The position numbers and the translations under genes are program-made. This document shows, one piece after another, positions 10,399 through 11,841 of a stretch of DNA of 64,000 nt. How positions within the stretch are numbered: position 1 is the first letter of the stretch; the number at the start of each line of letters is the position of its first letter. This stretch comes from an uncultured Bacilli bacterium (GTDB taxonomy: Bacteria; Bacillota_I; Bacilli_A; RFN20; CAG-826): assembly GCA_944363525.1 (NCBI GenBank), contig CALVUF010000003.1, positions 42,306 to 106,305 of the forward strand, read 5' to 3'. The notes beneath the pieces were generated by a model. That model was given only the letters and a program-made list of their open reading frames with translations. It was not told the DNA's origin and did no database searches.

Positions 10399-11841
10399 TT
10401 AGAAAGCTTTGAAGGCCACCTCGACATAAGGGGTCGGAGGATAATCGGGATCATAATGGGAGATGGGGCCGCCGCCGGTGATGTTTCCGAACATCTCGCC
10501 CCAACCGGATTCGTAGTTCAGGTATTCCTGAAAGTCGTTGTAGTGGTTGTAGGTATAGAATAGATAACGTTCCTTAGGATCGGTGATGGGGGTTCCGTCT
10601 AAGTGTTCCCGGGCATAGACGATCCGGGCGGCGCCTCTAGTTATCTTGGTGCCGTTGTTATAGGGGGCGGCGGTATATGATGGGTCGCAGTCGGTCCCGG
10701 TGGTGCCGATGTCGACTTCGTAATATTGGAGGTTTCCGCCCTCACCTGATACCCCAGGGAGGATCGGCTGGTAGGGCCAGTTTGAGCTATCGCCGGAGAA
10801 CTGGCTATGGTTGACCCGCAGGTACTTTCCCCAGATCGATTGGGTCGGGCGGGCGTCTTTGTCTTCTTCGTAATTGGCCGGGACATCGGCGAAGGCGTAA
10901 ATATAGGCCGCCACTTCCTCTAGGGTGGTGTAGGCTCCGTTCCGATAGATCTCAAAGGCGCGATTGCCAGCTGAATCTAGAACGTAATAAGTGTTCATGT
11001 CGGAGGAATAATCCATGGTGGTGTTGCGAACAAACAAACCGTTTTCCTTCGGCTGATTGGTGGCGATAGTCGGTTCCTGGTCTTGTTCAGCGATCGACCC
11101 GGACATCAAGCCGACTAAGGAACGGAAGTAGGCGTCTTCATTAGAGGAAGCCGGTTCATAATCGGCATAGAACTCATCCTCATCGACGTTGTAATAGGGA
11201 GTATCGGACAAGGCGATGGAAGTGATGGTGACGGGGTTGGTTTGCCGGGTGGCGGTATAGCCAACGATGGTGGCTGATTCGGTGTCGAGGCGGAAGCGGC
11301 CATCGCGGTAAATGGTCCCATCCCCTTCGGTGAATTCAAAGGTCAATTTCCCGATGTCATAACTTGGGGTGAATAGCGTCCCATAATCCCCTTCGGCTAA
11401 TTGGGTGGTATTCACGTATAAAGGGATGGTGGTCGATTCCTCTTTGATGGTGACCATGAGGAGGTTGCTCCCGTTTTCGTAGGAAGGGGAGAAGGCTTGG
11501 AACTGGGTTTGACCGGCTCGGGCGCCATAAAATCCGCCATCGCGTTCTTCGATGTAATAGCCTCCCGCGACCGCCCGGACGGTGGCGTTGCTCACCTCGA
11601 TTCCGGAAAGAGAATCGGTCACATGAAAAACGATTTGCTCCCCGATTTCGATGGTGGCTTCCTCGACTGATAAAAGCAAGGTCGATTGTTTGGTCTCGGA
11701 GGAGTTTGAGCCCACAATGTCGATTAGGCTGGTGTTAGGACTGGTGGAAGGTTCGCTTGATAAGGAAAGGGTGGAATGTTCCCGGCAACTGCAGAGAAAC
11801 AAGGGCAATAGCAATAATAGGCAGGCTTTTTTCATGGCCAC
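10399..11841 (-). CDS. Lipoprotein with C-terminal secreted guanyl-specific ribonuclease domain (barnase / RNase Sa / T1 family)
   Basis: Lipobox LFLCSC. The C-terminal ~110 aa align with RNase Sa, barnase and binase: VAAYIYAFADVPANY matches VADYLQTYHKLPDNY; YYEVDIGTTGT matches YHEYTVITPGA/WREADINY (catalytic Glu); RGAARIVY matches RGTRRIIC/RNSDRILY (catalytic Arg pair); YTYNHYNDFQEY matches YTGDHYATFSLI/TTDHYQTF (catalytic His). Confidence 0.8.
   Translation of the reverse strand: MAMKKACLLLLLPLFLCSCREHSTLSLSSEPSTSPNTSLIDIVGSNSSETKQSTLLLSVEEATIEIGEQIVFHVTDSLSGIEVSNATVRAVAGGYYIEERDGGFYGARAGQTQFQAFSPSYENGSNLLMVTIKEESTTIPLYVNTTQLAEGDYGTLFTPSYDIGKLTFEFTEGDGTIYRDGRFRLDTESATIVGYTATRQTNPVTITSIALSDTPYYNVDEDEFYADYEPASSNEDAYFRSLVGLMSGSIAEQDQEPTIATNQPKENGLFVRNTTMDYSSDMNTYYVLDSAGNRAFEIYRNGAYTTLEEVAAYIYAFADVPANYEEDKDARPTQSIWGKYLRVNHSQFSGDSSNWPYQPILPGVSGEGGNLQYYEVDIGTTGTDCDPSYTAAPYNNGTKITRGAARIVYAREHLDGTPITDPKERYLFYTYNHYNDFQEYLNYESGWGEMFGNITGGGPISHYDPDYPPTPYVEVAFKAF

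Follow-up and report, generated by a model that had tools for sequence, protein, structure and literature searches.

The window analysed here, a stretch of 64,000 nucleotides (64 kb) of contig CALVUF010000003.1 from an uncultured Bacilli bacterium, carries on its minus strand a gene for a putative surface lipoprotein whose C-terminal part resembles ribonucleases (RNases) of the barnase type. The open reading frame (ORF) at positions 10399-11841 is the sole long one at this site, and it counts 480 residues, as an earlier note, made from the sequence alone, had described it; the count starts at a GTG codon, and the lipobox (L-C-S-C) contains an invariant Cys. A public protein (P0128) is 100% identical from an ATG two codons downstream (nt 11835), and this ATG, which gives a protein of 478 residues, is likely the true start. 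The domains of this protein, its family, the genes found near its relatives and the possible role of the enzyme are described below.

Domain layout of the lipoprotein

The full-length AlphaFold model, with a predicted local distance difference test (pLDDT) score of 78.6, comprises a signal helix, a disordered linker, two beta-sandwiches and a compact C-terminal module. The corresponding features of the gene are as follows.

10399-11841, minus strand: whole ORF, 480 residues from the GTG; ATG start at 11835, from the identity with P0128
11785-11835, minus strand: lipoprotein signal peptide MKKACLLLLLPLFLCS and the Cys that follows it, the lipobox L-C-S-C being read from the sequence
11686-11784, minus strand: Ser/Thr/Pro-rich disordered linker, membrane tether (pLDDT <50 at residues 18-48 of the full-length model)
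11443-11685, minus strand: immunoglobulin-like (Ig-like) beta-sandwich domain 1
11215-11409, minus strand: Ig-like beta-sandwich domain 2 (weak match to Pfam Ig_TgrO1 at residues 117-175)
10942-11199, minus strand: family-specific N-subdomain, residues 215-300, made up of a pair of helices, the long LMSGSIxEQDQEPT loop and a meander of three strands
10519-10932, minus strand: barnase-like RNase core, residues 304-441, with two family-specific insertions
10402-10518, minus strand: family-specific, highly conserved C-terminal extension of about 40 residues (GWGEMFGNITGGG ... PTPYV)

Cys19 (GTG numbering; nt 11785-11787) is the predicted lipidated residue. It is invariant across 40 full-length relatives. 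Among the 120 best homologs a signal peptide with this Cys is almost universal, and a few have a transmembrane anchor in its place. As read from the sequence, the type-II signal peptide would direct Sec export and lipidation of Cys19, and the linker of about 30 residues together with the two Ig-like domains would keep the catalytic module of about 265 residues off the membrane.

This module is the conserved unit of the protein, and it consists of the N-subdomain, the barnase core with its Cys-bearing insertion, and the C-terminal extension. The N-subdomain (about 90 residues) equals the catalytic core in conservation and is modelled at pLDDT >90. Insertion 1 of the core (GTTGTDCDP...) lies between the strand that bears the catalytic Glu and the Arg pair, and insertion 2 lies in the beta3-beta4 hairpin; the central part of the C-terminal extension is poorly modelled (pLDDT <50). 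The N-subdomain, the GTTGTDCDP insertion and the GNITGGG extension had no counterpart in Pfam or PDB searches. The RNase domain, first placed at about residues 370-480 (some 110 residues), thus has to be moved: its core spans about residues 304-441, and the last 40 or so residues are the family-specific extension. An internal duplication, with the N-subdomain as a degenerate half-barnase, was also considered after a weak circular-permutant alignment in HMMER between the beta-meander of the N-subdomain and barnase strands 3-5 (E 0.19); it was dropped, a profile-profile comparison of the N part with the C part having given nothing.

The barnase-type core and its family

The motifs YYEVDIG (Glu375), RGAARIVY (Arg402/Arg406) and YTYNHY (His433), to which the earlier note had drawn attention, are all present, and none of their four catalytic residues varies within the family. 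The positions concerned are listed here.

10717-10719, minus strand: Glu375, equivalent to barnase Glu73 (general base); YYEVDI/WREADI alignment, on a predicted beta-strand
10624-10638, minus strand: Arg402 and Arg406 in the motif RGAAR, equivalent to barnase Arg83 and Arg87 (phosphate binding); RGAARIVY/RNADRLVY alignment
10540-10545, minus strand: His433-Tyr434, equivalent to barnase His102-Tyr103 (general acid); HMMER and Smith-Waterman alignments
10687-10689, minus strand: Cys385, the invariant lone cysteine in the insertion; family alignments

In family alignments of 45 and of 22 sequences, Glu375, Arg402, Arg406 and His433 are invariant, as are Asp377, the equivalent of barnase Asp75, and Tyr434. 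The catalytic residues sit on predicted strands and loops that match those of barnase, and in the alignment with binase YYEVDI pairs with WREADI, RGAARIVY with RNADRLVY, and YNHYNDF with TDHYATF. Glu367 (10741-10743, minus strand) is found in the query and in the proteins P0002 and P0004 at a position where most relatives carry a Cys, and the Cys of these relatives could pair with the invariant Cys385.

The Pfam hidden Markov model (HMM) PF00545 matched the full protein at E 0.016 with 16.1 bits, and the module alone with 17.5 bits, against a cut-off of 24 bits. The same model matched 45 of 45 aligned relatives (E <= 0.1, best 4.8e-4), the only Pfam family besides the Ig-like ones to do so, and divergent members of the family reach E 5.5e-4 to 2e-3. 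The PF00545 search had been put forward as a check on the assignment of the domain, with an insignificant result to count against it, and what it returned were sub-threshold matches only. Homology to barnase rests on the fold and on the family-wide evidence, both of which agree with the barnase-type assignment made in the earlier note.

A first profile (A1), which included the Ig-like columns, matched only Ig-like proteins in PDB, and a trimmed alignment of the module (A2) was therefore built. Against 177,635 PDB sequences, the A2 profile gave 15 matches, all of them barnase entries, at E 0.15-0.64. A Smith-Waterman alignment of residues 301-445 with barnase scored 78.5 (z = 5.4), a score reached by none of 1000 shuffles; the barnase and binase reference sequences used in these alignments were entered by hand. 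The model of the module alone (pLDDT 86.4; predicted template modelling score, pTM, 0.89) shows a predicted N-terminal helix packed on an antiparallel sheet of four to five strands, which is the alpha+beta fold of microbial RNases. Other searches were less informative: NCBIfam matched neither the protein nor three of its relatives, phmmer with the full protein against PDB returned noise only, and hhalign of A2 with a single barnase sequence aligned the first helix only (probability 12%). Taken together, this evidence indicates that the core is a divergent RNase domain of the barnase clade, most likely related by descent within the same superfamily.

With barnase, binase and balifase (N1/T1 superfamily, PF00545), the protein shares an N-terminal helix followed by an L/V-P-x-N-Y motif, the equivalents of Glu73, Arg83, Arg87, His102, Asp75 and Tyr103, and export from the cell. 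The RNases Sa and Sa3 of Streptomyces and the fungal RNase T1 have the chemistry of the same superfamily, with a Glu/Arg/His catalytic set. Whereas barnase is a free secreted protein of about 110 residues, the domain described here is the core of a module of about 265 residues that ends a lipoprotein with Ig-like spacers. It differs from barnase further in two insertions of about 15-20 and 12 residues, in the N-subdomain of about 90 residues and the C-terminal extension of about 40, in a score under the Pfam cut-off, in a Gln at the candidate position of Glu60, and in having no barstar gene within 64 kb. By analogy, Glu375 would serve as the general base and His433 as the general acid, and Arg402 and Arg406, probably with Lys328, would stabilise the transition state. 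Because the core has the barnase fold and a catalytic set of the barnase type, RNA cleavage is expected to proceed without metal, and it would pass through 2',3'-cyclic phosphates to 3'-phosphorylated products.

The architecture is not singular and belongs to a very large family. In a homology search over clusters at 90% identity, 2,430 of 8,000 scored candidates matched at E <= 0.001; the shared region corresponds to query residues of about 212-478, at 59-68% identity, and the N-termini differ. When each GTDB species was represented by a single genome, 413 genomes contained relatives. Nearly all of them are metagenome-assembled genomes (MAGs) from guts, and the best 80 are without exception MAGs from the guts of humans, ruminants, rabbits and chickens. 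The MAGs are labelled Bacilli, Acholeplasmatales, Erysipelotrichaceae, Coprobacillus CAG:698, Clostridia/Eubacteriales, Candidatus Enterosoma, Candidatus Scatosoma and Candidatus Limihabitans, and the window itself has a 98% match to 'uncultured bacterium A3_L3_373373_idba_bin.15' (L005). Module identity of 59-68% across MAGs labelled Bacilli and Clostridia suggests strong purifying selection rather than diversification of the toxin kind. The A1 profile found 515 proteins at E <= 1e-30 among the representatives of 1.84 billion proteins, giant Ig-repeat proteins included; this search gave no bridge to the classical barnases, and within its top 150 places those below the true family members were filled by such giants. 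The family has no Pfam model, no NCBIfam model and no name in any source searched, and a full-text literature search on barnase-like domains and lipoproteins returned only a toxin survey of 2012 (PMC3482391). The protein belongs to a large, widespread family without annotation, in which an enzyme of a common kind appears in a new setting. In one MAG, Candidatus Limihabitans stercoravium, two ORFs of the family lie in tandem (L016, about 6000-6800), which is either a duplication or a split gene.

Gene neighbourhoods and physiological role

The genes adjoining the RNase gene were compared over 75 species-level related loci, and six classes with nucleic-acid or nucleotide functions recurred as follows.

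DHH/DHHA1 (NrnA-like phosphoesterase): 27 of 75 loci
Giant lipoprotein: 22 of 75 loci
SurE 5'/3'-nucleotidase: 20 of 75 loci
Thymidine kinase (Tdk): 16 of 75 loci
SNase lipoprotein: 12 of 75 loci
Xth: 10 of 75 loci
Any of the six classes: 37 of 75 loci

Two arrangements can be distinguished. In arrangement A, the order is PepT, thymidine kinase, Xth, RNase and M32 carboxypeptidase, with DHH/DHHA1 further on and sometimes SurE after it. Arrangement B is a codirectional series of a solute-binding protein, an SNase-domain lipoprotein, a lipoprotein of about 1000 residues and the RNase, followed on the opposite strand by SurE, DHH/DHHA1 and Tdk; it was seen in L030, L035, L047, L056, L061, L064, L075 and others, at about positions 0-6000 of each locus. 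The first two lipoprotein genes are separated by 31-181 nt, and the gap before the RNase gene is mostly about 110-240 nt. The RNase gene lies codirectionally downstream of the 1000-residue lipoprotein gene in about 20 loci, at distances that are usually about 30-240 nt but reach 1-4 kb in three of them; the SNase-domain lipoprotein gene, where present (the 12 loci above), is usually two genes upstream, and in 8 loci a solute-binding-protein gene precedes the cluster of SNase lipoprotein, giant lipoprotein and RNase. The 1000-residue lipoprotein contains aBig_2 and, in two of three scanned examples, an OB-fold nucleic-acid-binding domain; an OB-fold within the same polypeptide as the RNase module was found in 3 of 45 family members. 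Both arrangements place the SurE-DHH pair in the vicinity of the RNase gene, and the pair occurs there in either orientation. The cluster of arrangement B looks like a surface locus for the use of nucleic acids.

The module also occurs in a phage. The Anaeroplasmataceae phage NatCom_34063 from human faeces (PV036447.1; Candidatus Heliusvirales) encodes a lipoprotein of 752 residues (L085 7657-9915, equal to PV036447.1 45619-47877) with several Big_2-like repeats, which ends in a full-length module 61.5% identical to that of the query. Its gene directly follows a gene for a subtilisin-like protease with a signal peptide, and both lie between the tail genes and the tape-measure gene. Carriage by phages is rare: among 50,697 records of phages it was seen in a single GenBank phage, and among 2.9 million contigs of IMG/VR in two (L086 and L087), both of the same lineage as NatCom_34063 at 94-96% nucleotide identity. 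No plasmid in the plasmid collection carries the module. The phage copy is therefore a rare cargo and not a mobile toxin.

On this evidence we consider it probable that the protein is a membrane-tethered extracellular RNase, which most likely digests outside RNA at the cell surface for the salvage of nucleotides, nucleosides or phosphate. The occurrence of nucleic-acid and nucleotide genes beside the RNase gene in 37 of the 75 loci favours RNA scavenging over a toxin role, and the scavenging option, which had been raised at the outset from the sequence of the window, thereby gains independent support. The phage module, too, adjoins a secreted protease, another degradative surface enzyme, which was counted in favour of scavenging. 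By analogy, RNA digestion at the surface would act in many relatives together with the SNase lipoprotein and a nucleic-acid-binding lipoprotein, and the 3'-phosphorylated fragments so formed could sensibly be passed on to SurE and the NrnA-like DHH enzyme. Phosphate starvation induces both binase and balifase (PMC5021464), and a nutrient-scavenging role is plausible for them on that ground, as it is here. Gut lineages with reduced genomes have been described (PMC6784871, PMC12306168), among them lineages without nucleotide synthesis (PMC12306168). That the host of the window is itself a Mollicutes-like, nucleotide-dependent organism, as had been supposed, is more than 64 kb can show; the labels of the relatives span Bacilli to Clostridia, and that of the phage is Anaeroplasmataceae.

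The closest functional parallel is found in the membrane nucleases of Mollicutes (Mhp379, MG_186, Mpn133, MnuA-type), which are likewise lipoprotein-anchored surface nucleases of host-associated Firmicute- or Mollicute-like bacteria. The lipoprotein nucleases of Mycoplasma supply nucleotide precursors (PMC12115388), and a supply of nucleic-acid precursors is proposed for both groups. The Mollicutes enzymes are Ca2+-dependent and have the TNASE_3/SNase fold, whereas the protein described here has the unrelated, metal-independent barnase fold, is expected from its sequence to be RNA-specific, and gave no match to an SNase or EEP domain in Pfam. In addition, the Mollicutes nucleases stand in an operon with an ATP-binding cassette (ABC) transporter for precursor uptake; no such operon is seen at the RNase gene of the window, where the nearest ABC system belongs to an amylase/sugar cluster.

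A number of observations weigh against the scavenging reading. Every listed PF00545 score among the relatives lies at 16-21 bits, below the cut-off; Foldseek with the model against PDB gave no match at E <= 0.001, RNase Sa appearing at E of about 1.5; and the predicted placement of the four catalytic side chains as in barnase is drawn from alignment and secondary structure. Gln358 (10768-10770, minus strand) replaces, in the query, P0002 and P0004, a near-invariant Glu of the family, the candidate base-recognition residue, which aligns with barnase Glu60, a base-recognition residue of the guanine loop Ser57-Glu60. The family motif here is YPYEPxLP, whose Glu is nearly invariant, and it is aligned near NREGKLP of barnase in a gapped part of the alignment. 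About half of the related loci are without nucleic-acid context, and the conserved nucleic-acid neighbourhood of the relatives is absent from the window itself. Furthermore, the neighbour counts are inflated and do not represent independent events because related species share synteny by descent. Finally, neither SurE nor the DHH protein has a signal peptide in the sequences inspected, and their coupling to the RNase would hence need import of 3'-nucleotides or oligonucleotides, and both the catalytic activity and the scavenging of family members are predictions.

A wider proposal, which we regard as doubtful taken as a whole, joins these elements into one previously undescribed nucleic-acid-harvesting surface machine of three lipoproteins, namely the SNase nuclease, the giant OB-fold binder and the barnase-type RNase. 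It would be coupled to salvage by SurE, the NrnA-like enzyme and Tdk, and it would sustain nucleotide-poor gut Firmicutes and Mollicute-like bacteria with reduced genomes. The RNase would be barstar-independent, being kept harmless inside the cell or activated only on export by means of the N-subdomain, the Cys insertion and the C-terminal extension, and one gut phage lineage would have captured the gene as an auxiliary gene for nutrient scavenging.

The fold and the surface location would serve equally well an RNase with a non-nutritional role, which might destroy extracellular or host small RNAs, block RNA phages or foreign RNA, or remodel an RNA-containing matrix. Carriage of the gene as cargo by one temperate-looking phage lineage could reflect lysogenic conversion or exclusion, but such carriage is rare and confined to this single lineage. 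SurE, DHH/DHHA1, Tdk and the SNase lipoprotein as neighbours point instead to nucleotide metabolism, and no defence-system model of PADLOC was matched. A role of this kind is therefore rather improbable.

Barnase-like domains are common as toxin modules, for which barstar is the dedicated immunity protein (PMC3482391), and binase-type RNases are described as cytotoxic. The protein could accordingly be an antagonistic toxin, a surface-bound or released RNase that kills competitors or host cells, with immunity of the barstar type encoded elsewhere. The earlier note had found no barstar-like ORF within about 2 kb, and there is none in the flanks or in the whole window. With barstar (a sequence entered by hand) as the phmmer query, no ORF of at least 40 residues, whether from the window or from 84 loci, scored better than E 0.5, and over 79 related loci neither barstar similarity nor a conserved small neighbour ORF was seen; Pfam assigned the small genes of the window to other families or to none, barstar (PF01337) not being among them; and neighbour clustering over the 75 species-level loci showed no recurrent small ORF adjoining the RNase gene. 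An RNase and its inhibitor in one operon is unique to balifase, the barnase and binase genes being unlinked from their inhibitor genes (PMC5021464), so that an inhibitor outside the 64 kb is possible. The failure to find barstar therefore carries little weight, since in Bacillus the barstar gene often lies apart and the 64 kb cover only part of the genome.

The Tox-Barnase/Imm-Barstar polymorphic toxins (PMC3482391) are likewise larger exported proteins that end in an RNase domain of the barnase clade. Here, however, the N-terminus shows none of the domains used for trafficking or translocation (LXG/WXG, RHS, filamentous haemagglutinin, PT-HINT) but a lipobox and Big_2 or Ig-like domains, sometimes with OB-folds or PT linkers. 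Conservation lies in the C-terminal module (59-68% identity over hundreds of species) and the N-termini are variable, the reverse of polymorphic toxins, and the neighbours are salvage and nuclease genes instead of an adjacent immunity gene. As there is also no PADLOC match and no copy in the plasmid collection, an antagonistic role appears improbable, and the option of a contact-delivered toxin, raised in the earlier note, is left without support. Self-protection may, as a speculation, come from export of the unfolded chain, possibly aided by the N-subdomain and the C-terminal extension; equally speculatively, an unlinked inhibitor may exist.

It could also be that the core has been repurposed, so that the module of about 265 residues acts on another substrate, such as cyclic or 3'-nucleotides or modified nucleic acid, or serves as a binding module. 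About half of the module is without a counterpart in barnase, Pfam or PDB and yet is conserved like the core, and all HMM scores of the family are sub-threshold. The complete catalytic set (Glu, Arg, Arg, His) and the structural Asp and Tyr are nevertheless invariant, which is hard to explain without the chemistry of RNA transesterification, and a repurposed core is accordingly quite improbable. That the resemblance to barnase is chance or convergence in an unrelated domain, as the PF00545 scores under the gathering score, the hhalign result limited to the first helix and the Foldseek E-values above 1 might suggest, is highly improbable given a PF00545 match in 45 of 45 relatives, a profile that retrieves barnases alone out of 177,635 PDB sequences, a shuffle test with z = 5.4 and invariant residues that are the catalytic ones.

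In general, a protein that occurs very commonly in uncultured gut bacteria, and that was invisible to annotation, can now be assigned a fold and a likely chemistry. If the scavenging reading is true, it would explain how reduced-genome lineages of the gut, such as RF39 and the Christensenellales-like and Mollicute-like groups, are supplied with nucleotides or phosphate, and it would suggest RNA or nucleoside supplements for the cultivation of such lineages. Since its enzyme is of the barnase type and may be independent of barstar, the family is in addition a natural experiment on self-protection, and the three conserved add-on elements are offered for structural study.

Other genes of the window

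The RNase gene is flanked by two lipoprotein genes, one for 517 residues (8694-10247, minus strand) and one for about 359 residues (11954-13105, plus strand, from MKSLRSL...). Both products have hardly any Pfam signal, apart from a sub-threshold Flg_new repeat in the 517-residue protein, and neither has homologs near the RNase gene beyond close relatives. A promoter-like site and a strong ribosome-binding site belong to the 517-residue gene itself, which borders on a cluster of LacI, amylase and sugar-ABC genes. A nucleic-acid island in the window was considered and rejected, as the flanking lipoproteins are orphans and the 517-residue gene has a promoter-like site of its own.

A further gene with a possible link to salvage is the following.

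17375-18244, minus strand: inosine-uridine-preferring nucleoside hydrolase gene (PF01156, on the identical gene in L001)

The earlier note had remarked on a nucleoside hydrolase gene 5.5 kb away. The gene is confirmed, and its product could act in salvage downstream of the RNase. Its linkage is not a conserved one, the gene being a neighbour of the RNase gene only in close relatives.

Some minor observations concern other parts of the window. The ORFs at 30037-31686 and 31625-33763 (both minus strand) are tandem and lipoprotein-like (549 and 712 residues) and have no Pfam match; as called they overlap by about 60 nt, and the start of the downstream one is probably later. A short ORF at 18735-19265 (plus strand; 135 residues as called in L001) matches C-terminal parts of alpha-L-rhamnosidase (Bac_rhamnosid6H, _C) and adjoins an AraC-type regulator and rhamnose catabolic genes (19314-22694), and it looks like the remnant of a truncated rhamnosidase. 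The ABC permease gene at 3241-4677 (minus strand) is intact (478 residues) in the window and in L002. In near-identical contigs, the same region is called as 109 and 366 residues (L001 17159-18595) or as 109 residues before the contig end (L004 12041-12370), and these differing calls reflect a frameshift or an assembly difference. The only tRNA gene of the window, for tRNA-Leu (16688-16772, plus strand), lies between an MgsA-like AAA gene and a gene for a small membrane protein.

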